A stretch of DNA of 64,000 bases from Candidatus Ruminimicrobiellum ovillum (GCA_002448285.1 DJWX01000011.1:185907-249906); one strand, 5' to 3'. Positions 25,055 to 41,863 are shown, numbered from the stretch's first letter. Numbers and translations are program-made. Notes: generated from the sequence alone by a model not told the origin.

Positions 25055-26335
25055 TTAGTTAACAATTTTTGCCGTTATGAATATAGTAAGTTCATATCTC
25101 GATTTGTTTTTCGTTTCACTCTTAAATAAGTATCCCAATATAGGAATATCACCCAATAACGGAACTTTGTTTACTGTCGTATCTTCCGTTTCTCTTATTA
25201 AACCGCCTATAGCCGCAGTTTCTCCGCTTCTTAACATTAAAGTAGTTGTTGATTTACTTGTATTAATAACAGGTGTATTTTCTTCTCCGATTGTTTCACC
25301 TGTTCTATAACTTTGTTCCGGAGATATCGATAATACTATCGAACCGTCTCTGTTTATTTGAGGTTTTACTTTTAATTTTATACCGGCTTCTTTAAATGCC
25401 ATTGTTCCCGTTGTATTTCCTTCGGTAGAAGTTGTTTTACTTTCCAAATAAGGAATTTCTTCAACAATATCTATCGATGCTTCCTGATTGTTCAAAACAA
25501 GAAGTTTAGGATTCGATAATACTTTAGCATCTTTATCTTCAACACCGGCTTCAAATGTTCCGTTTATACTCCAATCATCACCTTCAAGAATAGAAACTCC
25601 TACTCTTGCAAAAGATTTTGTTAAACCTAATCCCATAACCGAACCTATAGGAGTATCATAAACAAAATTTTTGTTGTTCATTTTTGAAGGATCAACGGTA
25701 GGATTAAGTAATCCGTCTCTATAAGTTTCGTTCCATCTTGTTCCTATTGCCGTTCCGTGAGACAAGTTAATATCTACGATTTTAGCTTCAAGTAAAACCT
25801 GTTGTGTAGGAACATCCAAAGATCTTATAAGACCTTCCATTTTATCTATACTATCGGCCAAATCCGTAATAATTAAAGAGTTTGTTCTTGTATCGGAAAC
25901 GATTTTACCGCCTTTTGATAATCTTGTTGACAAAATTTTCTCTAAATCGGAAGCCTTTGCATAGTTACAAAAAATAACTCTGGAAACCGTAATGTGGCTT
26001 CCGTCCGCTTTACTCTTAATAACATATATGTTTGCATCACCCTGTTTAACATAATACAAATCATAAGTATCAAGCAAAGCATTAAGAGCTTCTTCCGCAG
26101 TAACATCCTGCAAAGATAACATTATCTTCTTTTGATATAAATCCGTGGAAGAAATCAACTTCATACCTGTCTTCATACTTAAAACGTTTAAAACAGTGTA
26201 TAGTGAAGTTCCTTGAAAATCGATAGAAATTAAGTTTGTGGAATGTAAACCTCCGCCACTCTCTTTTTCCGGCGCAGAATAAGAAGTAGTAAATAGTAAA
26301 GAAACAGCTAATACCGTCAACAAAAGTTTTTTCAT
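25055..26335 (-). CDS. Secretin (PilQ/GspD family, short form)
   Basis: Signal peptide, N0/N1-like domains, and the secretin C-domain motif VPLLGDIPILGYLFKSETKNKSRYELTIFITAKIV. Confidence 0.9.
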   Translation of the reverse strand: MKKLLLTVLAVSLLFTTSYSAPEKESGGGLHSTNLISIDFQGTSLYTVLNVLSMKTGMKLISSTDLYQKKIMLSLQDVTAEEALNALLDTYDLYYVKQGDANIYVIKSKADGSHITVSRVIFCNYAKASDLEKILSTRLSKGGKIVSDTRTNSLIITDLADSIDKMEGLIRSLDVPTQQVLLEAKIVDINLSHGTAIGTRWNETYRDGLLNPTVDPSKMNNKNFVYDTPIGSVMGLGLTKSFARVGVSILEGDDWSINGTFEAGVEDKDAKVLSNPKLLVLNNQEASIDIVEEIPYLESKTTSTEGNTTGTMAFKEAGIKLKVKPQINRDGSIVLSISPEQSYRTGETIGEENTPVINTSKSTTTLMLRSGETAAIGGLIRETEDTTVNKVPLLGDIPILGYLFKSETKNKSRYELTIFITAKIVN

Positions 26336-26349
26336 TTTCTCTCCTTTTT

Positions 26350-27261
26350 TTAATTCTCCATTTTTATTGTAAATACTGAACCATACTTACTGACTTTTAT
26401 GTTGTTTCCGTTAATTTGCGTTATTTTAAACCCATTATAAACGTCTCCAACATAATAAAATTTACCGCCTATTATAGCCATAGGATGTTGCTTTTCATAC
26501 ATTATACCGTCTATAACTATATTAGGTTTTTCAACTTTTACAGCACCTCCGCCACCGCTTTTAACCGTTTTCTCAGGAACATAAAAATAAAAAGGTGTCT
26601 TTGGAATCGGTTCGAAATCTCTCCATGTTTGAATATAACCAACATCTTTTGCTTTTTCTATTTTATCGGATATTTCTTTAAAATACCCGGCTTTACGAAT
26701 ATCATCTTCTATAAAATCAATCGTATTTCTTCCGCTGAAACAATCGTTTACTTCCGAAGAAAAAAGAATAGGAACGGTTTTTATCTCCACATTTCCTTTG
26801 TAATCCATAACAAGAGACAAAACTTTAGAATACCTTTCCAATTCAAATAAAAATTTACAAATTTGTTTGTATGTCGCTTTTATCTTTAGAGTTATTTCTA
26901 TACTGTTATCTTTTTTTTCTTGAACTATGGAATCATCTTTTCCCATATGAATATCGGTTTCTTTTAACAACTCCAAAATTCTCACTTTATATGCATTTAT
27001 ATTTTGTTCGTTCGAATAAAAAGTGTCTTTATAAATAGAAAAGACTTCCGCTAAAGATTCATCCAACTCATCCATCTTTGTTTGTATGCTGTTAAAATCA
27101 TCCAACTGTGAATTTATATTTGAAAATCTTTCGTATACACTTTTTCTTTCTTTAAATTCTTTATCATAGCTGCCGTAAATATAGTTGTATACCAAGTATG
27201 CTATAAACAAAGAAAACATCAAATTCAATATAAAAATTAAAACTCTTTTACTTTGATTCAT
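26350..27261 (-). CDS. PilO-like protein fused to a PilP/GspC-HR-like C-terminal beta domain
   Basis: One N-terminal TM helix, a coiled coil, a PilO-like core (ITLKIKATYKQICKFLFELERYSKVLSL), and a C-terminal segment IVIDGIMYEKQHPMAIIGGKFYYVGDVYNGFKITQINGNNIKV. Confidence 0.5.
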   Translation of the reverse strand: MNQSKRVLIFILNLMFSLFIAYLVYNYIYGSYDKEFKERKSVYERFSNINSQLDDFNSIQTKMDELDESLAEVFSIYKDTFYSNEQNINAYKVRILELLKETDIHMGKDDSIVQEKKDNSIEITLKIKATYKQICKFLFELERYSKVLSLVMDYKGNVEIKTVPILFSSEVNDCFSGRNTIDFIEDDIRKAGYFKEISDKIEKAKDVGYIQTWRDFEPIPKTPFYFYVPEKTVKSGGGGAVKVEKPNIVIDGIMYEKQHPMAIIGGKFYYVGDVYNGFKITQINGNNIKVSKYGSVFTIKMEN

Positions 27262-27279
27262 AAATTATATCCCCAATAC

Positions 27280-27858
27280 TTAATTTGCTTTTTTTAACCC
27301 TATCTTCAATTTTAGAGCATTAACTTCTCTTTTATAAATATTCTGTTTTTCCATGGTTTCTATTACCATATCATTTTTAATACACTCGCTTTTCTCAAAA
27401 GCAGAATTTAAAATTGGAGCATAATCATAGAAACTGGTTAATTTTTTTACTTTTTCTTTGCTTATAAACCAATCTGAAGTTGCGGCTTCTCCCGCCATAG
27501 AAAGATTTATAATAGAATCTCCCTCGGGCAGGAATGTTCCGAAATCCTTTAAAATAGAGCCGTAATTCGTGCTTCCTTTTATTTGTTCTTTTACAGCCAA
27601 TATTTTATAGTAATAAGTTTCCCACTCTTTTTCTATTTCTATAATACTGTTCTGTGTTCTTTTTTGTTCGATTTTATTCTTTGTATCAATTATTTTTTTG
27701 TTGTAATTTACGGTTTCGAAATGTCTAAAAACCGTAAATAAAAATATCAATATTATTCCTATGTGAACAAAGAAATTTAAAAGTTTTAAAAATCTTACAA
27801 GAGTACTTCCGTATTTTTCTTTTGTAATAACACCTTCTATATAATTAAAGCTATACAT
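27280..27858 (-). CDS. PilN-like bitopic inner-membrane pilus alignment protein
   Basis: Short cytoplasmic N-terminus, a single TM (FFVHIGIILIFLFTVF), a periplasmic coiled coil, and a position between pilM and the pilO-like gene. Confidence 0.5.
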   Translation of the reverse strand: MYSFNYIEGVITKEKYGSTLVRFLKLLNFFVHIGIILIFLFTVFRHFETVNYNKKIIDTKNKIEQKRTQNSIIEIEKEWETYYYKILAVKEQIKGSTNYGSILKDFGTFLPEGDSIINLSMAGEAATSDWFISKEKVKKLTSFYDYAPILNSAFEKSECIKNDMVIETMEKQNIYKREVNALKLKIGLKKAN

Positions 27859-28873
27859 TTGCTTTTTTCTCCTTTTCGAGTGCCAAACCTAAAGCAACAG
27901 GCAAATAAAAACCTTGCGGTTTATTTACATATCCCACAAACTTGTTATTATCCAACGGATTCCATTTTTCGGTAGGAATACCTAAAGTATCCTGAATAAA
28001 ATTATCTATTCCTTCCGTCATAGCTCCTCCGCCGGTAAGCACTATTCTGTCAACGGAAACTATAAATTGTCTTGTTATACAATGTTCTATAGTTCTAAAC
28101 AAAGTTTCTATTAAAGTTGCAACATCTTTTTTCAAAATATTTTTCATGTTAAAATTTATTGTTTGTCTTAAATCTTCTCTTCTCTTTAACTCTTCGGATA
28201 ATTTTTCGGGAATCGAATAAAAGTTTGAAATATCTCTCGTTATATCTTGACCTCCGAAATCTATATCTTTAATAAAAACCAACTCTTTACCGTTCATTGC
28301 AATAACATTTGAAACATTGTAACCGATGTTTATTAAAATAATATTTTCGGAATTCTTATAGTTCGGCCCGAACTCAACAAAAGCATTTGCTAAAGCAAAA
28401 TCTTCCAAAGTAACACTTGAAACGGAAAGTGTATCAATTGTATTTATAAAAGAAAACTTTGCATTAACTTTTTCCATAGGAGCTGCGGAAAAAATAATGC
28501 TGTATTCTTTGTCGGAATTATTTTTTATAACAGAAAAAGAAGAATAAGTTTTACCTAAATCTTCGGAAATTGTGTTAACAACCTCGTTATTAACCTGATC
28601 TTTCAGGTTAATCAACTTATTTCTTTTTAACACAAAATCTCTATTAATTATATCTTTACCGCCAACAGCCAAACATACGGTATCTTCCAAGCAACCTAAT
28701 TTTTTCAAAACGGATGTCAATTTTTCCGTCTTTTCCGTTCCGGAATAGTTTGAAATATCCACTACAGCCGAAACTATCGAATATTCTTTCTTTTTCTTTT
28801 CAGTATTCGTAATTTTACAGATCTTTACAAACTTGCTGCCCAAATCAATGCCTATCAAGATTGTTTCCTCCAA
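27851..28873 (-). CDS. pilM: PilM (actin-like ATPase-fold pilus assembly protein)
   Basis: IGIDLGSKFVKI, NIGYNVSNVI, and IVLTGGGAMTEGIDNFIQDTLGIP motifs. Confidence 0.8.
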   Translation of the reverse strand: MEETILIGIDLGSKFVKICKITNTEKKKKEYSIVSAVVDISNYSGTEKTEKLTSVLKKLGCLEDTVCLAVGGKDIINRDFVLKRNKLINLKDQVNNEVVNTISEDLGKTYSSFSVIKNNSDKEYSIIFSAAPMEKVNAKFSFINTIDTLSVSSVTLEDFALANAFVEFGPNYKNSENIILINIGYNVSNVIAMNGKELVFIKDIDFGGQDITRDISNFYSIPEKLSEELKRREDLRQTINFNMKNILKKDVATLIETLFRTIEHCITRQFIVSVDRIVLTGGGAMTEGIDNFIQDTLGIPTEKWNPLDNNKFVGYVNKPQGFYLPVALGLALEKEKKANV

Positions 28874-29547
28874 CCTAACATTCTTATATCATTTCTAAGT
28901 CTTGTATTACCACCTGCAGTTGGGGCATCCTTAAATTGTGTTGTTTCAAAATAATATATCACTGTTGACTCTATTCTACTTCCGTTTGCAACACTAACAT
29001 CCGCCCAAGCAGTACCAACAATTTTATATGTTTGTCGAGGATTGGTTTCCGTTGGATTATAAGTATGAGCAATAATACCATTTTCAGTTGAAGGAGGAGG
29101 ATTCAAAAATTCACAATAAACTGAAGCATGTATATGCGGATACATACTACTATCAATAACTTCGGGAACTCCACCACCATAAGCAATTGAAAAAAGAGAA
29201 CCATCATTAAAAAGAGACCATTGCCCACCAACAGTATTGGCCACCGCAGAAAACAAATATCCCTGTCCTCTAAATGGTAAAACACCTAAATCACCGAAAT
29301 TACCATCTGGATCATGAGCTGTTTCCGGAAACTGTGCCATATTTCTCTCCACAACAAAATCAATATAACCTCTTGCTCTTTCTACTATTGCCTCTGCAGC
29401 ATAATCCACTCTTATTTTCGTCTGATCATATGTATCCATAACACCTTGAGAAGAAACCATTTGCAAGGTTATATAGCCTATGATGGTCAATATCATCATA
29501 GACACAATTGTTATTAAAAGAATAGCTCCTTTATTATTTTTTATCAT
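28855..29547 (-). CDS. PilX-N / GspK-like pseudopilin (no Glu5)
   Basis: MIKNNKG-AILLITIVSMMILTIIGYITLQ hydrophobic N-terminus without the FTLxE signature, as seen in PilX_N/GspK proteins. Confidence 0.5.
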   Translation of the reverse strand: MIKNNKGAILLITIVSMMILTIIGYITLQMVSSQGVMDTYDQTKIRVDYAAEAIVERARGYIDFVVERNMAQFPETAHDPDGNFGDLGVLPFRGQGYLFSAVANTVGGQWSLFNDGSLFSIAYGGGVPEVIDSSMYPHIHASVYCEFLNPPPSTENGIIAHTYNPTETNPRQTYKIVGTAWADVSVANGSRIESTVIYYFETTQFKDAPTAGGNTRLRNDIRMLGWRKQS

Positions 29548-30182
29548 AATTCAACAGGACTCCCATTTTTTAAAATAATTCCATCCTGATTCCTCATCGT
29601 AAAACAAAAAGTTCTGTTTTGTCTTTTTGTAACACCGGGAACAACAGAATCTTCATAAACAATTCCTATCATTATATTTCCTAAATGATTACCTGCCCCC
29701 ATTTTATTCGGTCTATAAAAAAAAGCTCTCACATTATTCAGCACTAATATATCCGGTGATGATGATTCTGAAGTCCCCTCAGGCACACTTCTTAGATGCA
29801 ACTCTCTAGGAGCAAACATATTACTATTTCCGATATTAGAAGGATACGCATCAAAATGAGAACCATATTGTTCTATAAACTTGGCATCAGACGCAGGGCT
29901 AAAAGTATAAGTATCGATAACCTGTCTATTAAGATGTGTATCGTATCTTTCACATGTAATTTTGCCCTCTTCTATATTAATTCTATTTGATTCCGTTATA
30001 GATTTTTTTAATATCTCTTCAAAAAATTGTACATTGTTAAAATTTTTAGCCGTCTTACTTGTTTTAGAAAACATCTTATATGCGGATATTGTCATTGTAT
30101 ACGAAAAAAAGATAACAATAGCCGATAACAAAATAGCTACCATCATTTCAACTAAAGTAAAACCTTTTTTTATAAAAAACAT
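29544..30182 (-). CDS. Minor (pseudo)pilin with a prepilin-type N-terminal methylation motif
   Basis: MFFIKKG|FTLVEMMVAILLSAIVIFF. Confidence 0.75.
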   Translation of the reverse strand: MFFIKKGFTLVEMMVAILLSAIVIFFSYTMTISAYKMFSKTSKTAKNFNNVQFFEEILKKSITESNRINIEEGKITCERYDTHLNRQVIDTYTFSPASDAKFIEQYGSHFDAYPSNIGNSNMFAPRELHLRSVPEGTSESSSPDILVLNNVRAFFYRPNKMGAGNHLGNIMIGIVYEDSVVPGVTKRQNRTFCFTMRNQDGIILKNGSPVEL

Positions 30183-30195
30183 TAAAAAACCTCGC

Positions 30196-30705
30196 TTATT
30201 CCCATCTCTGAGAAATATACGTTACCAAAATTATTCTGTTTTTCTCAGCTAGCAATGCATTTGGAAAAGATGTTTCTCCATTATTCCACGGCCACGATGC
30301 TTCACATACAATTTGAGTACCCACATGATGTGTGATACCATCGGATGTTGTTCTATTATCCGGATGCACATGACAAGTATAATGAACTTTACAATCATCC
30401 CTAAGTATTTTATCAACTTTAAAATCATAAGTTGTTCGATCGGTAGTTCCTTGATTGATTGTAGATTTTGCAGTAGGATAAAAATTATTATCCTCTACCG
30501 TAGGATAATCACCGCCACCCTTAACCATTTCCATTTTTCTTACCAAATCGTGTAAAACGAAACTATAATCTTTGCTATCTTGTGCATGTTTATATGCAGA
30601 AGAAAAAAAAGATAAGCCATACACACTCACAATACCGATAATTATAACCGCTACCAAAACTTCTACTATGGTTGTTCCTTTTTGTTTTTTTAAATTAGAC
30701 ACCAT
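30196..30705 (-). CDS. Minor (pseudo)pilin with a prepilin-type N-terminal motif, Cys/His-rich globular domain
   Basis: MVSNLKKQKG|TTIVEVLVAVIIIGIV. Start moved to Met15, which has a GAGGA RBS 7 nt upstream. Confidence 0.7.
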   Translation of the reverse strand: MVSNLKKQKGTTIVEVLVAVIIIGIVSVYGLSFFSSAYKHAQDSKDYSFVLHDLVRKMEMVKGGGDYPTVEDNNFYPTAKSTINQGTTDRTTYDFKVDKILRDDCKVHYTCHVHPDNRTTSDGITHHVGTQIVCEASWPWNNGETSFPNALLAEKNRIILVTYISQRWE

Positions 30706-30715
30706 ATTTAATTCC

Positions 30716-31153
30716 TCAACCCAAATTTTCTTCATACACAATATCATCGGAACTTAATTTATAAGTGCCGACAATAGTAACCCCTCTTAAATCAACATCT
30801 CCATCCACAGGATAAACCGTTACAACAACGCCCTCTCTATTTGTTGCTCCGGACGAATTTTTGATCCTAGCTATATTAAATCTCTTAAAGTACTTATTTT
30901 GTCTGGCATCAATTTTTAATTCTTGAGAAAACTCAAGTTTTTTACCGGAAGCAGTTATAAAAAAGTCTGAATTTTGAACTCTATAAATTTTTTCCTGTGC
31001 AACTATTTTATCAATTAAAGCTCTTCCCTCATTAGCCATTGCTACTTTCATATGTCCCTTACCTGTAAAAAACCATGCGGAAGCCAAAATACCAATGATA
31101 ACCACAACAATCATAACTTCAATAAAAGTAAAACCTTTTACATTCGATTTCAT
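30716..31153 (-). CDS. Major pilin / GspG-like pseudopilin (no cysteines)
   Basis: MKSNVKG|FTFIEVMIVVVIIGILASA. It is the first pilin gene after the platform gene. The start could instead be at 31177. Confidence 0.75.
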   Translation of the reverse strand: MKSNVKGFTFIEVMIVVVIIGILASAWFFTGKGHMKVAMANEGRALIDKIVAQEKIYRVQNSDFFITASGKKLEFSQELKIDARQNKYFKRFNIARIKNSSGATNREGVVVTVYPVDGDVDLRGVTIVGTYKLSSDDIVYEENLG

Positions 31154-31169
31154 AAAATTTTTACCCTTT

Positions 31170-32411
31170 TTAAACATTTTGGTTTACCATAGCATTTGCC
31201 ATATTAAATATAGGTAAATACAATGCTATAACACATATACCCACCATAAAACCCAAACCAACAATCAATACAGGTTCTATAATGGCACTTATACTTGCAA
31301 CAGCAGCATCAACTTCATCTTGGTAGTAATCCGTAATCTTCAAAAACATTTCTTCCATTTGACCGGTTTTTTCACCTACGGCAGTCATTCTAACGACCAT
31401 TTTAGGAAACAAAATATGCTTATCCATTTCAGCCGAGAAGAAATTTCCGCCGACTATTGCGGTTCTTATATCTTCCAATATAGACCTTAAGTATGTATTA
31501 TTTACCGTATTTGCCGCAATTTGTATTGAAGAAACAATATCGACACCGCTCTTTATAAGCGTAGACAAAGTTTGAAAGAAATTCGCAAAAACCATTTTTG
31601 TATATATCGGAGAAAATTTTGGAATTTTGAAAAACAATTTATGCCACTGTTTCAATCCTTCCGGATTTTTAGTCCATATTCTAAATGCTATATAAGCCAA
31701 TACGCCGAGTGCCACAATGTATAAAATTCTATCCACCACGAAATGACTTACATCAATAACAACTTGAGTTGCCCAAGGCAATTCCGCTCCAAAAGAAGCA
31801 AACATTTCTTCGAATTTCGGTATTAAAACAAAAACTATACCGCAAAAAACTATAAGGAAAAAGCTGCCTACAAACATAGGATACGATGCGGCAGATTTAA
31901 TTTTTCTTCTTAATTTAACTGAATTTTCAATATGTGTAGCCAAATCGGATAAAACTTTAGCCAATTTACCTGATTTTTCACCTACGGCAACCATTGAAAC
32001 GAAAGTGTTATCGAATATTTTAGGATATTTTGCAAGAGCATCAGAGAAATTGCTTCCGCCTCTTACATCTTCGGATATTTTTAATAAAACGCTGCTGAAA
32101 TATGCGTTTTGAACCATAACGGCAACATCGGACACGGCTTCCAACACATTAACACCGGCATTAACCAATGTAGACAACTGTCTGGCAACAACCGCCAATT
32201 CCGACAAAGAAACTTTTGTACTTGAGGTACTCTTTTTTAACTTTGCATCCAAGTCTGCAAGGAAACCGCCGAAAGCACTTTGCGACAAAGATATTTGAGA
32301 AAAGCCTTTCATTCTCAACTCGGAAAGAGCCGCATTTTCCGAGGATGCGACAACGGACCCCGAAACTTTTAACCCCAAAGAATTATTAGCTTTATATTTA
32401 AATTTAGGCAT
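31170..32411 (-). CDS. pilC: PilC/GspF platform protein
   Basis: Two T2SSF repeats (...VAVGEKSGKLAKVLSDLA... and ...TAVGEKTGQMEEMFLKI...) and three TM segments. Confidence 0.9.
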   Translation of the reverse strand: MPKFKYKANNSLGLKVSGSVVASSENAALSELRMKGFSQISLSQSAFGGFLADLDAKLKKSTSSTKVSLSELAVVARQLSTLVNAGVNVLEAVSDVAVMVQNAYFSSVLLKISEDVRGGSNFSDALAKYPKIFDNTFVSMVAVGEKSGKLAKVLSDLATHIENSVKLRRKIKSAASYPMFVGSFFLIVFCGIVFVLIPKFEEMFASFGAELPWATQVVIDVSHFVVDRILYIVALGVLAYIAFRIWTKNPEGLKQWHKLFFKIPKFSPIYTKMVFANFFQTLSTLIKSGVDIVSSIQIAANTVNNTYLRSILEDIRTAIVGGNFFSAEMDKHILFPKMVVRMTAVGEKTGQMEEMFLKITDYYQDEVDAAVASISAIIEPVLIVGLGFMVGICVIALYLPIFNMANAMVNQNV

Positions 32412-32430
32412 TTACAAAACACCTCACAAA

Positions 32431-34116
32431 TTATTTTTCTGCCATACTCACATTAAATACTTCTTCTACCGTTGTTCTTCCTTCCAATAATTTAGCAATA
32501 GCGGCTTTTCTTAAAGAAATAATTCCCTGCTTTGCAGCTAAATCTCTTAATTCAACATCGGTAGCACCTCTGGCAATAGCATCTTTCAAATCTTTTGTAA
32601 TTCTTAACATTTCAAATATTGCCGTTCTTCCTTTGTAACCGGTATTGTCACAGAACTTACAACCTTGTCCTTCATAAACTTTACAAGACTTATCAAGTTC
32701 CAACTTTTGATATATCTCATCCGGAAGAGTTACCTCTTTTTTACAATTAGGGCAAATTGTTCTAACCAATCTTTGCGCTATAATCAAATTCAAAGCATCC
32801 GCCATCAGGTAAGATTCAACACCCATAAAAGCCATTCTCGAAATTGTACTTACCGTATCGTTGGTATGCAAAGTTGAAAATACAAGATGTCCCGTCAATG
32901 CGGCCTGAATTGCTATTTGTGCCGTTTCGGTATCTCTGATTTCTCCTACGAGTATAACATCAGGGTCTTGTCTCATAAAGGTTCTTAAAATTCTTGCAAA
33001 GTCCAAACCTATATCCGCTCTGACATGGCACTGATTAATTCCCTTCAACTCATATTCCACAGGATCTTCCGCAGTCATAATGTTAATATCTGCCGTATTT
33101 ATATGCCCTAAAGCGGAATAAAGAGTTGTAGTTTTACCGCTTGATGTAGGACCGGTAACAAGTATCATTCCGTATGGAGCCGTGATTGCTTCTTTAAAGA
33201 ACGCTAATTCCTGAGGGCTAAACCCTACTCTTTCTATGTCCAAACCAAACACGTTTTTAGCAAGGACTCTCAGTACTATCTTTTCACCCCATATAGTCGG
33301 TATTATCGAGACTCTTATATCTATCTTCTGATCTGAAATTTTTATTCTGCATTTACCGTCTTGCGGCAATCTTCTTTCGGCTATATCGAGATCCGACATA
33401 ATTTTTATTCTGGAAACAATAGCCGGATAATATTTTTTAGAAGGAGCAGGCATCTGTTGCAAGATACCGTCTATTCTCATTCTCAAATAAATTTCTTTTT
33501 CGAACGGTTCCAAATGAATATCACTGGCTTTCTTGGTTATCGCATCAAAGAAAATCGAATTCACATACTTAATAACCGGAGCCGAATCCGACTCTTCAAT
33601 ATCATCGGTTAATTCTTCTTCCTCTTCAGCCTCTTGTATTTCATTTTCGCCGATTTCTTTACTTAAAGAACTTCTTACATAAAATCTTTCTATGAAAGAT
33701 AAAATATCTTTTTCGGATGCCAAGATTACCGAAAGTTTCTTATTGGTAATTCTTGCAAGCTCATCCTTATAAACAACATTCGCGGGATCAGCCATCGCAA
33801 CTACAAGCATATCTCCGTTAAGTTCCAAAGGAACAGCACAATATTTTCTTGCTATTTTTTCTTGAATTAAATCAAGAACTCTTTGTTCTACATCAACTTC
33901 CGACAACTCGCGATATTCAACACCTAAGGCTACCGCCAAACATTCCAATAATTGCGGTTCGGAAATATATTGTTTTTCTAAAAGAATACTTCCGATTTTC
34001 TTCTTTTTTTCTAAGGACTCTTTCAAACACTCCGACAACTGCTCTTTTGTGACATACTGCTTACTTAAAAGGACTTCTCCAAGATACTTTTTTCGTAAAA
34101 CTTCTAATACCATCAA
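32431..34116 (-). CDS. pilB: PilB/GspE assembly ATPase
   Basis: Walker A GPTSSGKTT, Asp/His boxes, and a tetracysteine motif CPNCKKE...CKFCDNTGYKGR. The N-terminus is a T2SSE_N/MshEN-like domain. Confidence 0.92.
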   Translation of the reverse strand: MMVLEVLRKKYLGEVLLSKQYVTKEQLSECLKESLEKKKKIGSILLEKQYISEPQLLECLAVALGVEYRELSEVDVEQRVLDLIQEKIARKYCAVPLELNGDMLVVAMADPANVVYKDELARITNKKLSVILASEKDILSFIERFYVRSSLSKEIGENEIQEAEEEEELTDDIEESDSAPVIKYVNSIFFDAITKKASDIHLEPFEKEIYLRMRIDGILQQMPAPSKKYYPAIVSRIKIMSDLDIAERRLPQDGKCRIKISDQKIDIRVSIIPTIWGEKIVLRVLAKNVFGLDIERVGFSPQELAFFKEAITAPYGMILVTGPTSSGKTTTLYSALGHINTADINIMTAEDPVEYELKGINQCHVRADIGLDFARILRTFMRQDPDVILVGEIRDTETAQIAIQAALTGHLVFSTLHTNDTVSTISRMAFMGVESYLMADALNLIIAQRLVRTICPNCKKEVTLPDEIYQKLELDKSCKVYEGQGCKFCDNTGYKGRTAIFEMLRITKDLKDAIARGATDVELRDLAAKQGIISLRKAAIAKLLEGRTTVEEVFNVSMAEK

Positions 34117-34175
34117 AAACTCCTTTTATATACACATATGAAAAGTTGATTTTCACAACTTTTTCACACTTTAAA

Positions 34176-34204
34176 ATTATAGAAGAATATATCAATTTTG
34201 TCAA
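34176..34204 (-). promoter_or_regulatory. Consensus sigma-70 promoter of the pilB operon
   Basis: Minus strand reads TTGACA-17 nt-TATAAT (-35 at 34199-34204, -10 at 34176-34181). A 9-bp leader hairpin gaaaagttg/caacttttc follows. Confidence 0.75.
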
Positions 34205-34226
34205 TGATTTTCATTCAAATAACAAC

Positions 34227-35411
34227 TTAATCCCTAAAAAACAAATCTCTTGTATAAACTTTATTTTTTACATCTTCAAGCTCACTATTGTAACGATTTG
34301 CTATTATAACATCGGAAACTTGTTTAAATGTATTTATATTCTTAACAACTACCGAATTTAAAAATATCTTTTCCCTGATTGTAGGTTCATATACCACAAT
34401 ATCAATGTTTTTTGCTTTTAATCTTTTGATTATACCCTGAATCGAACTTTGTCTGAAATTATCGGAACCTGTTTTCATGGTTAAGCGATAAATCCCGACG
34501 GTTTTTGGCTTTTTAGAAGCAATCTGTTCGGCAATGAAATCTTTCCTTGTCTTATTGGAATCTACTATAGCGGAAATTATATTTTGCGGAACATTTTTGT
34601 AATTTGCAAGCAATTGTTTTGTATCTTTCGGTAAACAGTATCCGCCATATCCAAACGACGGATTATTGTAGTGGCTGCCTATCCTCGGATCTAAACATAT
34701 ACCGTCAATAATGGCTTTTGAATTAAGACCTTTAAGTTCGGCATAAGTATCAAGTTCATTAAAGAAACTTACTCTTAACGCCAAATACGTATTGGCAAAC
34801 AACTTCACGGATTCAGCCTCCGTAGCAGACATAAATTGTACATTGATATTTTCTTTAATTGCCGCCTGTTTTAATAAATTTACGAACTGTTCCGCTTTAC
34901 TTAGAATATTTTTGTTATTTAAATCGGTTCCTATCACTATACGGCTCGGATACAAATTATCGTAAAGAGCTTTACCCTCTCTTAAAAATTCGGGACTGAA
35001 CAAAATATTATCGGTAGCAAAATTTTCTTTTGCTTTTTGTGTAAAACCTATAGGTATTGTGGATTTTATAACTATAACGGCATTCGGATTAATGTCCGTT
35101 ACTTGCTTTATTACTTTTTCTACCGACGATGTATCAAAAAAGTTTTTTTTCTCATCATAATTTGTTGGCGTGGCAACAACGACAAAATCGGCATTTTTAT
35201 ATGCTGTTCGAGCATCGGTAGTTGCAACTAAATTTAACTCTTTGTTTGTCAAAAAATCTTCTATTTCTTTATCTTTAATGGGAGATTTTTTATTATTTAT
35301 ATCGTTTACTCTTTCATCAAGAATATCAACAGCAATAACTTCGTTTTTTTGAGCCAACAATACAGCAAGCGATAAACCCACATATCCTATTCCGGCAACA
35401 GTAATTTTCAT
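34227..35411 (-). CDS. ugd: UDP-glucose 6-dehydrogenase
   Basis: [14 protein letters not shown] Rossmann N-terminus and catalytic [10 protein letters not shown]. Start moved to Met5, with a GGAG RBS. Confidence 0.9.
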
Positions 35412-35442
35412 TGATTTCTCCAAAATGTGTATAATTGGCGAT

Positions 35443-35471
35443 ATTATACATTAAATTTACCGATATAACAA
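35443..35471 (-). promoter_or_regulatory. Candidate promoter for ugd
   Basis: Minus strand reads TTGTTA-17 nt-TATAAT. Confidence 0.4.
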
Positions 35472-35496
35472 GAATACAAGCAGTAAGAAATATCAA

Positions 35497-36378
35497 TTAA
35501 AATAATGAGCCTGATTTAAAAAAAGATATAACAAACGGAGCAAAAAGAAGAATGAATATTGTGGGCAATATTAAAATTGTCATAGGTAACAACATTTTTA
35601 CCGGAGCTTCATGTGCTTTTTTTTCGGCTATTGCGACATTGTCATCGGACACTTGCCGAGCTATTTTATTCAAGCTGTCGGTAAGACCTGTTCCGGTATC
35701 CAAAGACATTGTTATCGCTTTTACAAAAGTATCTATTTGAACAATATTATATTTTTCAGACAACTCTTTAAAAGCCTGTTTTGTGTCTATTCCCAAAGAC
35801 ATTTTTTTAATAATATCTTTTAACTCGTTTATAAAATGTCCTTCCAAAATCGTTACTATTTTATTGATTGCTCCGTTAAAATCTATTCCGGAATAAACCA
35901 TTATTGCCAATAAATTTGAAACATCCGGTATTTGTTTCACTATTTCATTAATTTTTTTATTATACTGTTCATATATCTTCAGATACGGCAATATCAAGAA
36001 CAATAATCCGAAACATATCATAAATAACATATCGAAGCCGAAAACTATCACCGATATAAAACAACCTGCCAGCATTGATATAAGTTGTATAAAAACAAAA
36101 TTGTATGAATTTATTTTCATATCATTAAAATCAAACACTTTTAACATACTGTCAAGTTTCGCAATATAGTCGACAAACAGTTTTATTTTAATGAGTTTTA
36201 ATATCGGCTGCAACATGTTTGACATTTTCAAAATATATATTAAAAAAATATTTTTATTATCCGCACTTCCATAAAAATTTTGTTTTGCATAAAAACCCGA
36301 TACAAACATACTTATTGCAAAATAAAGAATATAAAACAAACCAGTCAAAGTAATAAATGTTAATATTAAATACATCAT
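35497..36378 (-). CDS. tadC: TadC-like platform protein (T2SSF family)
   Basis: T2SSF domain with TM helices at both ends. Start moved to Met21, which forms an ATGA overlap with the tadB stop. Confidence 0.7.
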   Translation of the reverse strand: MMYLILTFITLTGLFYILYFAISMFVSGFYAKQNFYGSADNKNIFLIYILKMSNMLQPILKLIKIKLFVDYIAKLDSMLKVFDFNDMKINSYNFVFIQLISMLAGCFISVIVFGFDMLFMICFGLLFLILPYLKIYEQYNKKINEIVKQIPDVSNLLAIMVYSGIDFNGAINKIVTILEGHFINELKDIIKKMSLGIDTKQAFKELSEKYNIVQIDTFVKAITMSLDTGTGLTDSLNKIARQVSDDNVAIAEKKAHEAPVKMLLPMTILILPTIFILLFAPFVISFFKSGSLF

Positions 36379-37175
36379 AATTTTATGTCCGCAATTTTTT
36401 TCATCATAAAAGAACCGGATAAAATCATAATAACACAAACAAGCAATATGATATTACCTAAAACGGAAGAGAACAAGATCGATACCATTTCCGGTTCGAT
36501 AAAATAAATTATAAAAATTATAAAAAACGGAATCGTGCTTATAACCATTCCTGAAAAACGCACCTGAGAAGTAAGAACATCAACTTTGTTCGCTAAATAA
36601 AGTTTTTTAGAAACGGATTGTTCTATTTTTGAAAGTATATCGGAAATTTTTATACCGGTAGAATGAGATATCTTTAAAGAATCCATAAAAAATTTATATT
36701 GTTCATTTTGAATTTTATCCGTAGAATCTTTTAAAGCTTTATCCAAACCGATACCTAACTCGACTTTCTTCAATATTTCTTTAAATTCCGATGATAACGG
36801 ATCTTTTATTTGGCAAGAAACAGATTCTATTGCTTGAATTATATTCTCTCCGGACGAAACCGAATTTCTAAATAGTCTTATTGTTTCCAATATCTGTTTA
36901 TCTATTTCCTTTTTATATTTTTGTTTTTTATTTTCGGTAAAAAGCCAAAAACAATAAACTCCCGCAACGGTTATTATTATTGCATATATTACATTAAGCA
37001 AAACAGATATCAAAACAAAACAAATAATAAGCAACAAAATTCTTTTTTTGCTTTGTTTTTTGTTCTTATTTTTTACAAGTGCAGTGTCTTTTGATTTTAA
37101 CGATAAAGCTGAATAAAAAACCAATAAACAAAAAGATATTAAAAAAAGTAATAGATATACAATGTTTAAACTCAT
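36375..37175 (-). CDS. tadB: TadB-like platform protein (T2SSF family)
   Basis: N-terminal TMs, a T2SSF core (...GENIIQAIESV...LGIGLDKAL...), and C-terminal TMs. Confidence 0.7.
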   Translation of the reverse strand: MSLNIVYLLLFLISFCLLVFYSALSLKSKDTALVKNKNKKQSKKRILLLIICFVLISVLLNVIYAIIITVAGVYCFWLFTENKKQKYKKEIDKQILETIRLFRNSVSSGENIIQAIESVSCQIKDPLSSEFKEILKKVELGIGLDKALKDSTDKIQNEQYKFFMDSLKISHSTGIKISDILSKIEQSVSKKLYLANKVDVLTSQVRFSGMVISTIPFFIIFIIYFIEPEMVSILFSSVLGNIILLVCVIMILSGSFMMKKIADIKL

Positions 37176-39064
37176 AAGTGTTTTATGAAAATATTTTTAT
37201 GATTATCATAGGTAAAAACCGGAACCAATTTATATTCGCCGTTTTCCGTTTTTTCCAACAAGGAAATTTCAGATATTTTTCTTGAACCGTCAGGATATCT
37301 TTTTATTTGAACAATAATATCCAATGCCGACACTATCATGGAAATTATAGATTTTTCCGGTAAGTCAAAACCCGCCATTAAAGACATAACAACAAGTCTG
37401 GATATCGCATCCGAACAAGAATTGGAATGAACAGTTGTCATTGAACCGCTGTGACCGGTATTCATCGCCTGTAACATATCCAATGTTTCGGCAGCTCTAC
37501 ACTCACCGACAATAATTCTGTCCGGCCTCATTCTTAAAGAATTTATAACAAGTTGTCTTATCGTTATTTCCGATGTTCCCTCTAAAGATTTCGGCCTTGA
37601 CTCAAGTCTTACAACATGTTCCTGCTGCAATTGAAGTTCGGCGGAATCTTCAATTGTTATTATTCGTTCTTTTGAATCTATAAAAGAAGACAATATATTC
37701 AATAAGGTGGTTTTACCGGAACCTGTTCCGCCCGAGATTAAAATGTTTTTTTTATCATTAACGGCAGTTTTTAAAAAATTCAACATTTCTTCGTTTAACG
37801 AGCCGAAACTTATAAGTTCTTGTCCCGATAATTTATGCTTTGAAAATTTTCTTATTGTTAATACCGGCCCATATAAAGATATCGGGGATATAACAACATT
37901 TACTCTCGAACCGTCTTTGAGTCTTGCATCGACTATCGGAGAAGATTCATCAACATGTCTGCCGATCGGCGCAACAATTCTGCTGATAACATTTTTTAGT
38001 TTTTCAACATTCTCAAATTTAATATTCGTTTTTTCTATCTTACCTTTTTTTTCAACATATATATTATCACAACCGTTTACCATTATTTCGGTAATATTTT
38101 CATCCGCCAACAAATCTTCCAAAATTCCGAATCCCGCTATATCATTAATCAATTCTTTTATAATTTTTTCTTCGGTTTCATTATTAAGTTTTATTCCGTA
38201 TTTCAAAACAAGTTCTCTAACATTTACCATGATTATGTTCGATAAAACTTTTTTATCGCTTTCATCAGAATAATCTTTCATTTTTTCAATTAAATCTTTA
38301 TGTAGTTTTTCTCTTAAAAGATTATATTTATTCGAACCTGCGGCTATATCAATTATATTATTACCTTCGGTGGTGCATTGTGATATTTTCCCCATAATTT
38401 TCTTTATGCCGTCAACGAAAGCATTTTTTCCGTCATTAAACATAAAGTTTTTATCGATAACTTCTTTTTCCGTATCGGAATCAAAGTTAATAAATATTGA
38501 GTTTTGTGGAATAAAATTTTCTTCTTTTTCATCAATATTAAAATCAATATCGGTTTTTAATATTACCGGGAAAACGTTTATATCTTTGATTTTATTTATA
38601 ACTATATCGGAATATATTTTTTGGTAATTTGACAGAGAAACAGGCTCTTTTTCAAGCAAACATAAAACAATATCACTCAAAGATAAGAAATCATGAAAAC
38701 CTTCGCTGTTATCATAAACAACAAAAATATTATCATATATTTTCGATAAAGATTTTATTATAAAGTCCAAATTACCGTTGAGTAATGTTGTTATATTTTT
38801 CACACAAACAATATCGTTATTCGTATCGAAATATGATTTTAACATAGACACATTAAGATTCAAAGCAACATTCAATATATCATCCAAAAATTTTATATTT
38901 TTTTTACCGTAATAAGCCCAAATTATGTTGCTGTGTCGTCTTACATCAACAACAATATTTTTTTTATTATCGTAAGTATTTACGGCAGACAGTCCTCTTG
39001 CCAAAGAAGTTGCATAAACGGACTTGTTTGTTTGTAGAATGGATATTATTTTTGATTTATTCAT
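37172..39064 (-). CDS. cpaF: CpaF/TadA secretion ATPase with a ~235-aa N-terminal degenerate ParA/TadZ-like domain
   Basis: Core motifs ITEIMVNG, SGGTGSGKTTLLN (Walker A), IITIEDSAEL, PDRIIVGECR. The N-terminal extension is discussed in the findings. Confidence 0.88.
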   Translation of the reverse strand: MNKSKIISILQTNKSVYATSLARGLSAVNTYDNKKNIVVDVRRHSNIIWAYYGKKNIKFLDDILNVALNLNVSMLKSYFDTNNDIVCVKNITTLLNGNLDFIIKSLSKIYDNIFVVYDNSEGFHDFLSLSDIVLCLLEKEPVSLSNYQKIYSDIVINKIKDINVFPVILKTDIDFNIDEKEENFIPQNSIFINFDSDTEKEVIDKNFMFNDGKNAFVDGIKKIMGKISQCTTEGNNIIDIAAGSNKYNLLREKLHKDLIEKMKDYSDESDKKVLSNIIMVNVRELVLKYGIKLNNETEEKIIKELINDIAGFGILEDLLADENITEIMVNGCDNIYVEKKGKIEKTNIKFENVEKLKNVISRIVAPIGRHVDESSPIVDARLKDGSRVNVVISPISLYGPVLTIRKFSKHKLSGQELISFGSLNEEMLNFLKTAVNDKKNILISGGTGSGKTTLLNILSSFIDSKERIITIEDSAELQLQQEHVVRLESRPKSLEGTSEITIRQLVINSLRMRPDRIIVGECRAAETLDMLQAMNTGHSGSMTTVHSNSCSDAISRLVVMSLMAGFDLPEKSIISMIVSALDIIVQIKRYPDGSRKISEISLLEKTENGEYKLVPVFTYDNHKNIFIKHL

Positions 39065-39897
39065 TATTTTTGAGAATATTTATTTATTATTTCGTTTAAC
39101 TCTTTTTGTCTTTTTTGCATTTCGGTATTCTGCTGTCTTACGGATTGTATTTTTATATTTGCCGTGGCATTCTCACAAATATCATTTATCTTAACTGTTT
39201 TATTTTGTTGAATTTTATCGTCGGAAGAAGCTCTTAAAACAACTTTCAATATTCCTTTTTCCTGTGCCAAAACTATTTTTTGTGCTTCTTCCATAGAAAC
39301 AGCCATCGTTACCGGAATATTTACGGAAACGGTTACTTCTTCCGCAGATTTTTTTGCAGAACCTATAATATCGTTACCGACTGCCAACACCAAAAGATTT
39401 TGAGCAACCACACACGCGGCTTCTTCAAGTCTTTGATTTTTATTTTCATATTCTATAATCGATATTAAATCAACTTTACTTCCGGAAGTAATTATTCCGT
39501 TTATTTCCTGATTATTAAAAAGTATCGTTATTGCTTTTTTGTTATCGGGTATGGTGTTTGCCAAGCCGAATCCCGATATTAACGACGATATTTTAGATGA
39601 TGTTATTTGTTCCCCTTCTTCAAAAGGAACTATGGATATATATGCAGGTTTTCCGTCAACATAAAATTCTTTTATTTCCGATATATATTTAGGTTGAACA
39701 TATTGTTTGGGAACAATCTTTTCCTTTATCATCGAATCCGTTATAATTTGTCCCTGTTCTATTCTTTGATTGGCAACAACAACTTTAATTTCTTCGGACA
39801 TACTTTTGTTTTGCTGTCCCGTGTCGTACAAGTATAAAGTTGCAAACAATGCCGAAAACAGTGCCAATACGGCTATAAGTATAACATTTCTTTTCAT
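39064..39897 (-). CDS. cpaB: CpaB/RcpC Flp pilus assembly protein
   Basis: N-terminal TM, an SAF-like domain (VVVANQRIEQGQIITDSMI), and a beta-clip C-domain. Confidence 0.8.
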   Translation of the reverse strand: MKRNVILIAVLALFSALFATLYLYDTGQQNKSMSEEIKVVVANQRIEQGQIITDSMIKEKIVPKQYVQPKYISEIKEFYVDGKPAYISIVPFEEGEQITSSKISSLISGFGLANTIPDNKKAITILFNNQEINGIITSGSKVDLISIIEYENKNQRLEEAACVVAQNLLVLAVGNDIIGSAKKSAEEVTVSVNIPVTMAVSMEEAQKIVLAQEKGILKVVLRASSDDKIQQNKTVKINDICENATANIKIQSVRQQNTEMQKRQKELNEIINKYSQK

Positions 39898-39899
39898 AT

Positions 39900-40061
39900 T
39901 TATTTTACATTAGCTTCGGTAGATATTTTCTGTGTTGAATCTTGAAACATACTGTTTACTTTACCGCCGAACATTTTTACACCTGCAATTACAACAATAA
40001 CAACCAAAACGATTATGAGAATATATTCCACCATTCCTTGTCCTTTGTTATTTCTTAACAT
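39900..40061 (-). CDS. flp: Flp-family pilin (53 aa, absent from the ORF track)
   Basis: My manual translation is MLRNNKGQG|MVEYILIIVLVVIVVIAGVKMFGGKVNSMFQDSTQKISTEANVK. It carries the Flp G/xxxxEY motif and has a GGGGGAAAATATG RBS. Confidence 0.85.
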   Translation of the reverse strand: MLRNNKGQGMVEYILIIVLVVIVVIAGVKMFGGKVNSMFQDSTQKISTEANVK

Positions 40062-40078
40062 ATTTTCCCCCGTGAAAA

Positions 40079-40582
40079 TTATTTTCTTTTATGTATTTTA
40101 TTTTTACAACCGCTGCCCGCAAGAACAGACAGTTTTGTTTTTATAATAAATTCATCCATACCTGCAATATTCATTATTTTGGGCAAATTATAAGAATAAG
40201 ATATTGATACGGTTGATAACTCGTTTGACGGAACAAACAGACCTTGAACAATGTTCGAAATATTCGATAAATCCGTTATATTGTTGTAATCGATAGCATT
40301 ATAATTTTTAATATCTACGGTTATATCTTTTATTTTATCCGTATCCAACCTTCTGCCTTCTATCATTTTGTTGGTCAAATAGTTTTTAATATCTTTTTTT
40401 ATATCTTCACCGGACAAAGTCGTATTTGCTATCATATCCGTTCCGTATCTTGTTGCGGAAACGAGTTGTTGCCATGTTAAAAGAACTCTCGCAAACCAAA
40501 CAACAGAAAATATCAAGACTATTATTACAGGAAAAATAAAAACAGCCTCTGTAAATGCCTGCCCTTTTTTGTTTTTAAGCAT
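40079..40582 (-). CDS. tadE: TadE-like pseudopilin
   Basis: MLKNKKGQAFTEAVFIFPVIIVLIFSVVW is a TadE N-terminal motif. Confidence 0.75.
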   Translation of the reverse strand: MLKNKKGQAFTEAVFIFPVIIVLIFSVVWFARVLLTWQQLVSATRYGTDMIANTTLSGEDIKKDIKNYLTNKMIEGRRLDTDKIKDITVDIKNYNAIDYNNITDLSNISNIVQGLFVPSNELSTVSISYSYNLPKIMNIAGMDEFIIKTKLSVLAGSGCKNKIHKRK

Positions 40583-40585
40583 AAA

Positions 40586-41863
40586 TTATTTTTTAGGTTT
40601 TATAATATCAAAACCGGTATACTTTCTTAAAACTTCGGGAATTATGACCGAACCGTCTTCTTGTTGATAGTTTTCCAAAATTGTTGCAAAAGTTCTGCCG
40701 ACCGCAACTCCCGAACCGTTTAATGTATGAACAAATTCTCTCTTTTTTGTTGCAGTATTTTTATATTTGCAATTCATTCTTCTTGCCTGAAAATCTTTAA
40801 AATTAGAGCAGGAAGAGATTTCTCTGTACATACCTTCACCGCTCATCCAAGCTTCCAAATCATAAGTTTTTGTTGAGCTGAAACCTATATCTCCGCTGCA
40901 CAAAGCCATTACTCTATACGGAATACCCAACAACTGCAAAACTTTTTCGGCATCGTTAGTCAAAAGCTCCAACTCTTTTGCGGAATCTTCAGGTTTAACA
41001 AATTTTACCAATTCCACCTTATTGAATTGATGATTTCTTATTAAACCTTTTGTATCTTTACCATACGAACCGGCTTCTCTTCTAAAACATGCGGAATAAG
41101 AAGCATATTTTACAGGAAGTTGCTTTTCATCCAAAACTTCATCTCTGTGTAAATTTGTAACGGAAACTTCCGCGGTAGGTATCAAATATAATTCATCGTC
41201 AGGACATCTGAACAAATCTTCTTCAAATTTCGGCAACTGTCCAGTTCCTCTCATTGAAGCTCTGTTTACCAAATAGGGAGTCATAATTTCCTGATAACCG
41301 TTTTGTTTGTGAGTATCAAGAAAAAAACTGATAATTGCTCTTTCCAAAGCACATCCTTCATTTTTCAACAACGAAAATCTCGAACCTGAAATTTTTGAAG
41401 CTCTTTCAAAGTCCAATATTCCGAGTTTTTCACCTATTTCCCAATGATGTTTCGGCTTAAAAGAAAACTTCGGAGGTTCCCCTACCACTCTTACGACAAC
41501 ATTATCTTTATCACTCTTTCCGACAGGAGTAGTTTCATCGGGAATATTCGGAATTCTCATTAAAAAATCTTCTATTTGATTTTCTATATTAAGTAAAAAT
41601 TTTTCTTTTTCTTGTATTCTTGCTCTTAATTGTTCCAACTCTTCCAACAATTCTTTTTCGGGTTCTTTTCCTTCTCTTTTTAACTTTCCCACCGTTTCGG
41701 AATCGGTATTTCTTTTTAATCTGAACTGTTCTATCTCCGTAATTATAGATCTTCTCGTATTATCCCAATCCATCAGTTGATCTAAATTGATATCCTGATT
41801 TCTTTTTTTTAATCCTTCTTTTACAACATCAATGTTTTCTCTGAATAGTTTAATATCTAACAT
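40586..41863 (-). CDS. serS: Seryl-tRNA synthetase
   Basis: [13 protein letters not shown]-terminal coiled coil and class II motifs (FRREAGS..., GSGVAVGRT). Start moved to Met36, because the upstream part of the track ORF overlaps tRNA-Glu. Confidence 0.93.

Follow-up and report, generated by a model that had tools for sequence, protein, structure and literature searches.

A Tad/Flp locus and a type IVa-like pilus operon side by side in Candidatus Ruminimicrobiellum ovillum are probably two independent filament machines with separate secretins and a shared PilD-lineage peptidase

The DNA considered here, which we call the window, is a stretch of 64,000 nucleotides from Candidatus Ruminimicrobiellum ovillum (GCA_002448285.1, DJWX01000011.1:185907-249906), and it carries two loci for type IV filaments, a Tad/Flp locus and an operon that resembles those of type IVa pili (T4aP), with the UDP-glucose 6-dehydrogenase gene ugd between them. 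The source genome (1.83 Mb in 27 contigs, 100% complete, ~32% GC) belongs to a rumen genus of the Elusimicrobiota described by Mies et al. (2024; PMC11257099). The minus strand carries every gene from 23.3 to 42 kb, and profile searches with Pfam and NCBIfam confirmed the anatomy that a preliminary description of the window had given for the Tad/Flp locus, ugd and the pilus-like operon, including the coordinates and the common strand (Table 1). One detail must be corrected: the Flp prepilin had been credited with the cleavage motif G/MVEY (the slash marks the cleavage position), and its actual leader is NNKG/QGMVEY, with Glu at +5 and Tyr at +6 (G/XXXXEY).

We consider it highly probable that the two loci belong to independent type IV filament machines that were made neighbours by a rearrangement in one subclade of a rumen genus of the Endomicrobiaceae (Candidatus Ruminimicrobiellum and relatives), and that these machines use separate pores and share a peptidase of the PilD lineage. 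Gene identities were obtained by the profile searches and by sequence searches of the PDB, and folds were compared with AlphaFold2 models and Foldseek. The identities, the gene inventories, synteny, phyletic patterns and a peptidase tree are direct observations; the pore that each fibre uses, the processing of Flp by PilD and the division into transcription units are our inferences. The family sample consists of 25 Endomicrobiaceae genomes and the wider comparison of 41 related genomes, given G numbers where they have to be told apart, with G000 for the genome of the window. Close relatives of the window's TadA come from rumen MAGs (metagenome-assembled genomes), namely Endomicrobiaceae bacterium ruminal_MAG_447 (G009), Candidatus Ruminimicrobiellum bubulum RGIG9669 (G006) and Elusimicrobia bacterium RGIG6610 (G012).

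The preliminary description had counted a single secretin, and this is true inside the window. Genome-wide, the Secretin model recovers two genes, and the second is located on another contig (C10). It encodes a protein of 243 aa made up of a signal peptide, ~65 residues and the Secretin domain, in which N0-N3 or BON-like periplasmic domains are not recognisable. Flp2 follows directly, and then a TadE-like protein (TadE2, NNKG/QSFLE) and a TadG-like protein (NRKG/QVLPY), both recognised by N-terminal motif and synteny only. The short secretin was found in 41 of 41 relatives, and its homologs are annotated as CpaC by JGI. Seven relatives have the unsplit order short secretin-TadE2-TadG-TadE1-Flp-CpaB-TadA-TadB-TadC, and TadA is encoded 0-9 kb downstream of the secretin without a change of strand; they comprise G019 of the same family, G026, G027, G030, G033 and G036 of other families of the order, and G040 of the same class. 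Since the genes of the short-secretin block make up the 5' half of an undivided tad operon in these genomes, the Tad system would have a pore of its own, and conserved gene order is a strong argument that the short secretin represents the RcpA/CpaC-type pore of this system. Such an RcpA-type secretin elsewhere in the genome is what the preliminary description had named as speaking against its proposal that the Flp fibre leaves through the PilQ/GspD-like secretin, and its further suggestion of a periplasmic or non-extruding Tad system is no longer needed.

The ancestral tad operon would thus have contained the short secretin, flp2, tadE2, tadG, tadE1, flp, cpaB, tadA, tadB and tadC, of which the window holds the 3' half. 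The Flp fibre would exit via this minimal secretin, and CpaB presumably bridges the periplasm to it. The operon is split in the genus of the window and also in G020, G022, G023 (same family, complete, 1.59 Mb) and G024, and the gcvT junction of the 5' half is identical in G000 and G023. Flp2 follows the secretin also in G033, G040 and G023. The short secretin measures 240-270 aa throughout the Endomicrobiales, and the 243-aa protein may be among the smallest secretins. Each tad half is separated by only 0-3 bp from a housekeeping gene, serS ahead of tadE1 (window 40582-40586) and gcvT ahead of the secretin (G000:C10:16950-16951). The end of serS lies 3 bp ahead of tadE1, and a longer serS open reading frame (to 41968) extends into upstream sequence. 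These abutting genes, and a serS gene inside the unsplit operon of G026, suggest that the tad halves are expressed by read-through from housekeeping genes.

Phyletic patterns point the same way. In G008, a genome of the same genus (97% complete), the genes that come immediately after serS-Tad-ugd are pilM, pilN and the pilO/P-like gene, then the response regulator gene and hrcA, and everything from pilB through pilX is gone from the locus, as are the PilQ-like secretin gene and the TPR gene. A search of the whole G008 genome revealed no PilB, PilT or PilQ-like secretin, and the short secretin is kept with 94% identity. The same combination, Tad with the short secretin and without PilB, PilT and PilQ-like secretin, is seen in G014, G016, G018, G019, G023 and G026, so that the three T4aP components are missing jointly in the same seven genomes. 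As Tad is kept in the absence of a PilQ-like pore, the proposed exit of Flp through that pore fails. The remnant in G008 may reflect a recent deletion or a retained function: pairwise ratios of nonsynonymous to synonymous divergence (dN/dS) are 0.16-0.45 for its three pil genes and its response regulator gene, and we found no clear sign of relaxed selection on pilM, pilN and the pilO/P-like gene, whose ratios of 0.16-0.22 do not clearly differ from those of the Tad genes.

If the pores are separate, the peptidase appears to be shared. Within the window, the sole match to the Peptidase_A24 model is a 15-bit antisense match, and in the whole genome one gene exceeds the cut-off, on contig C21 behind pilT and a pilin-like gene. 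Its product (277 aa) is of the PilD type, with the A24_N_bact domain, matches to PF06750 and PF01478, the GxGD motif and two CxxC motifs. The preliminary description had suggested one peptidase encoded elsewhere for both prepilin classes, and had named a TadV peptidase elsewhere as evidence to the contrary. A TadV hidden Markov model, built from the TadV-like enzymes of relatives and run with all filters off (--max) over every open frame of G000, retrieved no open reading frame other than the PilD-type gene, and the suggestion is supported family-wide: exactly one A24 gene is present in 24 of the 25 family genomes, and the 25th (84% complete) shows none. In other families there are often two, with the long one in the T4aP locus, and a short A24 enzyme (170-216 aa) adjoins the tad secretin in G028, G036 and G038; TadV-type enzymes are confined to these other families of the order. 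In a maximum-likelihood tree, the short TadV-like enzymes form a clade of their own (support 100/99), and all family sequences fall into a PilD clade, which includes shortened enzymes (166-240 aa) from the Tad-only genomes G014, G016, G018, G019 and G023, which retain GxGD and have neither CxxC motif. The CxxC motifs bind the zinc of PilD. The methyltransferase activity of PilD has been tied to zinc (PMC3584216). Genes for N_methyl prepilins number 8-15 in genomes with the PilB operon (14 in G000), 0-2 in Tad-only genomes and 0 in G016, and the TadV-less family keeps the Flp leader KGQGMVEY throughout.

The simplest account of these patterns is that enzymes of the PilD lineage mature the Flp-type prepilins of this family. 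The A24 peptidase, which would be the sole component common to both machines, would cleave the G/FTxxE prepilins as well as the G/xxxxE(Y) prepilins of the Flp/TadE type, and the TadV-type enzyme kept beside the tad secretin in other families would have been lost in the family of the window. We lean, by a small degree, towards a more detailed history, in which the Endomicrobiaceae lost TadV, PilD took over the maturation of Flp, TadE and TadG, and Tad-only lineages, which afterwards gave up the T4aP machine and almost all type IVa prepilins, kept PilD and trimmed its CxxC loop, converging on the TadV architecture. Cleavage of the Flp/TadE prepilins by an unrelated protease, or their use in uncleaved form, is unlikely. 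It can draw on P. aeruginosa, where Flp processing is credited to the dedicated FppA (cited in PMC12075869), but a single A24 gene without TadV, even with a clade-specific model, and the strictly conserved G(-1)/E(+5)/Y(+6) leader argue against it, as does the retention of a PilD-lineage enzyme in G016, which has neither an N_methyl prepilin nor a T4aP machine. Sharing and promiscuity of prepilin peptidases are documented (PMC6668835; PMC12075869), and PilD has been proposed, not tested, as the enzyme for the major pilin of Myxococcus Kil (PMC12075869).

The operon from pilB to the secretin gene appears to encode a retractile type IVa-like pilus machine put together from what was left of two ancestral loci, since PilB, PilT and the PilQ-like secretin are lost together, the operon has its own pilT in other families, and a remnant of a canonical locus is present. 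In other families, the orthologous operon has the order pilB-pilT-pilC-pilins-pilM-N-O/P-secretin-response regulator, with its own pilT between pilB and pilC, and an extra canonical T4aP locus contains pilB, pilT, pilC, pilA, pilD and pilM onward, with a 640-720 aa secretin frame on the same contig. In the family of the window, the operon's own pilT is lost, and the canonical locus is reduced to pilT, a pilin gene and pilD; every family genome that has PilB has PilT as well. The machine has a PilQ-like secretin and a predicted promoter to itself, and would obtain PilT and PilD from a third locus (C21), which would be all that the family has kept of a second, canonical T4aP locus. The operon could alternatively encode a type II secretion system and no pilus, which we hold to be very unlikely. 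The scores of the GspF and GspE models come close to those of the PilC and PilB models, prepilin 1 has GspG/GspH-like matches and the secretin is short, but the operon has PilM instead of GspL, its proteins show no GspC, GspL or GspM match, it strictly co-occurs with PilT, and pilT lies inside it in other families. The best matches of the secretin are to PilQ: the top NCBIfam model is PilQ TIGR02515 (254 bits, below the 284 cut-off), the GspD equivalog model reaches 238 bits against a cut-off of 351, and PilQ chains are the best PDB matches (153 bits, compared with 62.6 bits for RcpA), with V. cholerae PilQ (6w6m) aligning to residues 34-425. For the PilX/GspK-like, PilN-like and PilO/PilP-like proteins, neither Pfam nor NCBIfam gave a family match. 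The response regulator gene follows the secretin gene also in G009, G011, G020, G022, G024, G028, G031, G035 and G038, and the TPR gene follows the regulator gene in G011, G020, G022 and G024 and was lost along with the secretin in G008.

Both pilus systems are under purifying selection, with pairwise dN/dS values between G000 and G009 of 0-0.16 (Tad genes), 0.015-0.12 (T4P core) and 0.18-0.51 (pilins). A decaying Tad relic was considered and rejected, as all open reading frames are intact and Flp is unchanged in its amino acids (dN = 0 at dS = 0.55); the Flp motif is kept throughout the order. TadA carries a ~300-aa N-terminal extension with homologs detected in the genus only, and its residues 1-300 have no Pfam match and no PDB sequence match at E <= 10. 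A TadZ-like nature of this extension has been suggested and could not be confirmed, the AlphaFold2 model of the N-terminal part having a pLDDT (predicted local distance difference test score) of 54 and one confident region, a three-helix bundle at residues 245-309. No separate TadZ/CpaE gene is present in either tad half-locus, and no TadD pilotin or RcpB was seen beside either half, for which no genome-wide search was made. NCBIfam gave no match for TadB, TadC, TadE2, TadG or PilD; TadA homologs are named CpaF in source annotations. In several other families, a short (~350-aa) TadA-like ATPase without the N-terminal extension is encoded directly after the short secretin, as in G027, G030, G031 and G038, which results in two ATPases per tad operon.

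The adjacency of the two loci is restricted to part of the genus. The order membrane protein-serS-Tad-ugd-T4P is shared by G000, G009, G006 and G012, with a remnant in G008, and it is absent in three genomes of the same genus (G005, G011, G013) as well as in G020 and G022, where other genes follow Tad and the T4P operon is located elsewhere. G024 has a different order, with the T4P operon 7.6 kb upstream of Tad and hrcA after Tad; ugd is not at this position in any of these six genomes. As other members of the genus and G020, G022 and G024 are arranged differently, the adjacency appears to have arisen inside a subclade of the genus, and the conservation in relatives that the preliminary description had put up as a test is largely not observed. 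The ugd gene is best regarded as a lineage-specific neighbour that is part of neither machine. Transcription units were judged from scans for the sigma-70 consensus TTGACA-17-TATAAT only: in 19.5 kb there are two sites with 12/12 matches, before pilB and before hrcA, and a 10/12 site precedes ugd. The 15.5-kb supercluster therefore stands as a purely physical arrangement, and the idea that the position of ugd indicates pilin glycosylation finds no support in its subclade-only placement and its own promoter-like site.

A selected supercluster has little chance of being correct; in this reading, transcription from serS/tad might continue into ugd and pilB, or the downstream response regulator might control both adhesins together, and ugd would supply sugar for pilin or surface glycosylation. 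The genes share a strand, the spacers are only 73 bp and 110 bp (the latter between ugd and pilB), no convincing terminator was found between the units, the order is the same in at least four species, the loci are less than 8 kb apart in G024, and ugd is still present in G008. Against this stand the promoters just described, the absence of the arrangement from the three genomes of the same genus named above and from G020 and G022, the absence of ugd from this position outside the subclade, and the response regulator, which accompanies the T4P operon alone in other families. That the Tad system has no secretin of its own and extrudes Flp through the neighbouring PilQ-like secretin is extremely unlikely: the window holds one secretin only and the loci are adjacent on one strand, but the second secretin lies beside Flp2, TadE2 and TadG and inside the tad operon of seven relatives, seven relatives have Tad without a PilQ-like secretin, and the adjacency is missing from most of the family.

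A number of points weigh against two independent machines with separate pores and a common PilD-lineage peptidase. Neither sequence nor fold places the short secretin with RcpA/CpaC over PilQ/GspD: in the PDB, RcpA (8odn; 90.5 bits) is tied with the top matches (91.3 bits), the tie consisting of PilQ, an Acidithiobacillus secretin and RcpA, NCBIfam yields GspD/PilQ matches only, below cut-off, and the AlphaFold2 model (pLDDT 67) finds all secretins alike in Foldseek (TM-score, the template modelling score, about 0.4). As these searches do not discriminate, the assignment rests on synteny, and because Tad and the short secretin co-occur in every genome, phyletic patterns cannot separate the two. 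Concerning the peptidase, we know of no direct demonstration that a PilD-type enzyme cleaves a Flp-type prepilin, and there is the FppA precedent given above. The G026 peptidase sits on a long branch, so that its place in the tree is not reliable and was not used as evidence, and in G019 and G023 a pilin gene beside the trimmed PilD could alone explain its retention. The intact pilM, pilN and pilO/P-like genes beside Tad in G008 are unexplained. Finally, G024 belongs to another genus and has both loci less than 8 kb apart, so that some selection for proximity is possible.

Several observations concern the surroundings of the T4aP genes. Between pilT and pilD lies a pilin gene orthologous to that of the highly conserved major pilin of other families (KSKG/FTLIELMIVVAIIG...), and the genus of the window has lost the Gly at -1 (LLKV-NIIEV; W in G017, S in G020). 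This pilin is probably no longer cleavable by PilD, though its gene is kept. Type IVa prepilins form a multigene family with near-identical N-termini (KGFTLVELVIVIVIVGILSVISVPIYRGYVEKAK) and variable C-terminal parts, whose members probably serve the T4aP machine as exchangeable major pilins or adhesins. Directly after the pilin-pilD pair, in a placement conserved family-wide, lies a gene for a Wzy_C (O-antigen-ligase-like) membrane protein of 530 aa with C-terminal TPRs, which recalls the TfpO/PglL pilin O-oligosaccharyltransferases and in which no PglL-specific domain was found. This gene would be a better candidate than ugd as a glycosylation lead.

Table 1. Features of the window and of the associated loci on other contigs and in relatives. 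Window positions are counted from its first nucleotide; C, contig of the genome of the window unless another genome is named; L, locus of a relative.
Feature	Position	Strand	Match or basis
serS, seryl-tRNA synthetase	40586..41863	-	Pfam tRNA-synt_2b + Seryl_tRNA_N; 98% identity to the 425-aa SerS of G009
TadE1, TadE-like pseudopilin, leader KG/QAFTE	40079..40582	-	PF07811 TadE 35.8 bits (cut-off 22.9)
Flp prepilin, 53 aa, NNKG/QGMVEYILI	39900..40061	-	PF04964 Flp_Fap E 1.6e-7, 31.4 bits, slightly below the 32.2-bit cut-off
CpaB/RcpC	39064..39897	-	TIGR03177 116 bits (cut-off 71); PF16976
TadA/CpaF ATPase, 630 aa	37172..39064	-	PF00437 210 bits, residues 311-586; TIGR03819 310 bits, under the equivalog cut-off of 373
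TadB platform protein	36375..37175	-	PF00482 T2SSF, one copy
TadC platform protein	35497..36438	-	PF00482 T2SSF, one copy
Promoter-like site before ugd	35443..35471	-	10/12 matches
ugd, UDP-glucose 6-dehydrogenase	34227..35423	-	NF011631 591 bits; TIGR03026 330 bits, above cut-off
Perfect sigma-70 promoter TTGACA-17-TATAAT, ugd-pilB spacer	34176..34204	-	12/12 matches
PilB-type extension ATPase, MshEN N-terminal domain, c-di-GMP motif	32431..34116	-	PF00437 453 bits; PF05157; TIGR02538 636 bits (cut-off 676); NF053729 48.8 bits, above cut-off
PilC/GspF platform protein	31170..32411	-	PF00482, two copies, 192 bits
Prepilin-type protein 1, VKG/FTFIE, GspG/PilA-like	30716..31177	-	PF07963, TIGR02532
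Prepilin-type protein 2, QKG/TTIVE, minor pilin	30196..30747	-	PF07963
Prepilin-type protein 3, KKG/FTLVE, minor pilin	29544..30182	-	PF07963
PilX/GspK-like protein, hydrophobic N-terminus	28855..29547	-	Position + N-terminus; position conserved in relatives
PilM	27851..28873	-	PF11104 112 bits; TIGR01175 100 bits
PilN-like bitopic protein	27280..27858	-	Position only; syntenic in all relatives
PilO/PilP-like protein	26350..27261	-	Position only; syntenic in relatives
PilQ-like secretin, 426 aa, STN-like + Secretin_N + Secretin	25055..26335	-	PF00263 175 bits; PF03958
Response regulator, receiver domain	24116..25030	-	PF00072
TPR protein with signal peptide, candidate PilF/PilW-like pilotin	23338..24114	-	Weak TPR matches; role inferred
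5' tad half (243-aa secretin, Flp2, TadE-like, TadG-like)	G000:C10:14448-16950		Behind gcvT
Second secretin, 243 aa	G000:C10:16219-16950		Secretin model
Flp2, 59 aa, NNKSG/QAAVEY	C10:16043-16222		Directly after the short secretin
PilT + PilD third locus	G000:C21:132634-134999		pilT, pilin-like gene, pilD
PilT retraction ATPase	C21:132634-133701
Pilin gene between pilT and pilD	G000:C21:133719-134156
PilD-type peptidase	C21:134166-134999		Peptidase_A24 model
Wzy_C-TPR membrane protein	G000:C21:135013-136605
Prepilin family copies	C5:99960-103495 (six in tandem); C11:257193-257711; C15:53576-54163; C21:77004-77456
Second short TadA-like ATPases	L027 4518-5567; L028 14096-15193; L031 6505-7563; L135 29-1075
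Retained pilM, pilN, pilO/P-like, response regulator	G008:C83 (L020 10210-13345)

With a second secretin identified, the idea of two filament classes passing through one outer-membrane pore is removed, and the case shows that an inventory limited to a window can mislead. If true, the takeover by PilD would demonstrate in nature that a Tad pilus can be served by an enzyme of the PilD type, a question that cannot be tested in Myxococcus Kil because pilD is essential there (PMC12075869). For pilus specialists, a Tad system that appears to depend family-wide on a PilD-lineage peptidase and the stepwise loss of the CxxC loop after T4aP loss are of modest value, as are the split tad operon, the secretin cut to its core and the composite origin of the T4aP machine. 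The rumen genus may associate with ciliates, and an inventory of complete adhesin machines helps to interpret this lifestyle, because pili are the only appendages reported to be encoded by Endomicrobiaceae (PMC11257099).

In comparison with known systems, these are two ordinary machines of known kinds that have recently become neighbours. The Tad/Flp system corresponds to the type IVc systems represented by Aggregatibacter tad, Caulobacter cpa and P. aeruginosa RcpA-TadD (PDB 8odn) in its G/XXXXEY Flp prepilin, TadE-type pseudopilins, CpaB/RcpC, TadA/CpaF ATPase, paired TadB and TadC and dedicated secretin. It differs in an operon that is split over two loci, and multi-locus Tad systems are "very rare" (Denise et al., 2019; PMC6668835), in a 243-aa secretin without recognisable N0-N3 or BON-like domains, in the absence of TadV and in a TadA with a ~300-aa N-terminal extension. 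The second machine shares with the type IVa pili of P. aeruginosa and Myxococcus (Pil) the proteins PilB, PilC and PilM, N/O-like proteins, a PilQ-like secretin, G/FTxxE prepilins, PilT and a bifunctional-type PilD with A24_N_bact, whereas its parts appear to be drawn from two ancestral loci, the operon's pilT having been lost and PilT and PilD coming from a degraded canonical locus, and it has a short secretin of 426 aa and a PilB with an MshE-type c-di-GMP domain. One A24 enzyme that is encoded apart from the machines and serves several prepilin classes is also found in other shared-peptidase cases, that is, PilD/XcpA for T4aP and type II secretion, the peptidase-less MSH loci (PMC6668835) and the PilD proposed for the pilin of Myxococcus Kil, a Tad system (PMC12075869). 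Here, in contrast to these cases, the peptidase would be shared with a Tad system that appears to have lost its TadV family-wide, and the PilD-lineage enzyme of Tad-only descendants has lost the CxxC (zinc and methyltransferase) loop and looks TadV-like.

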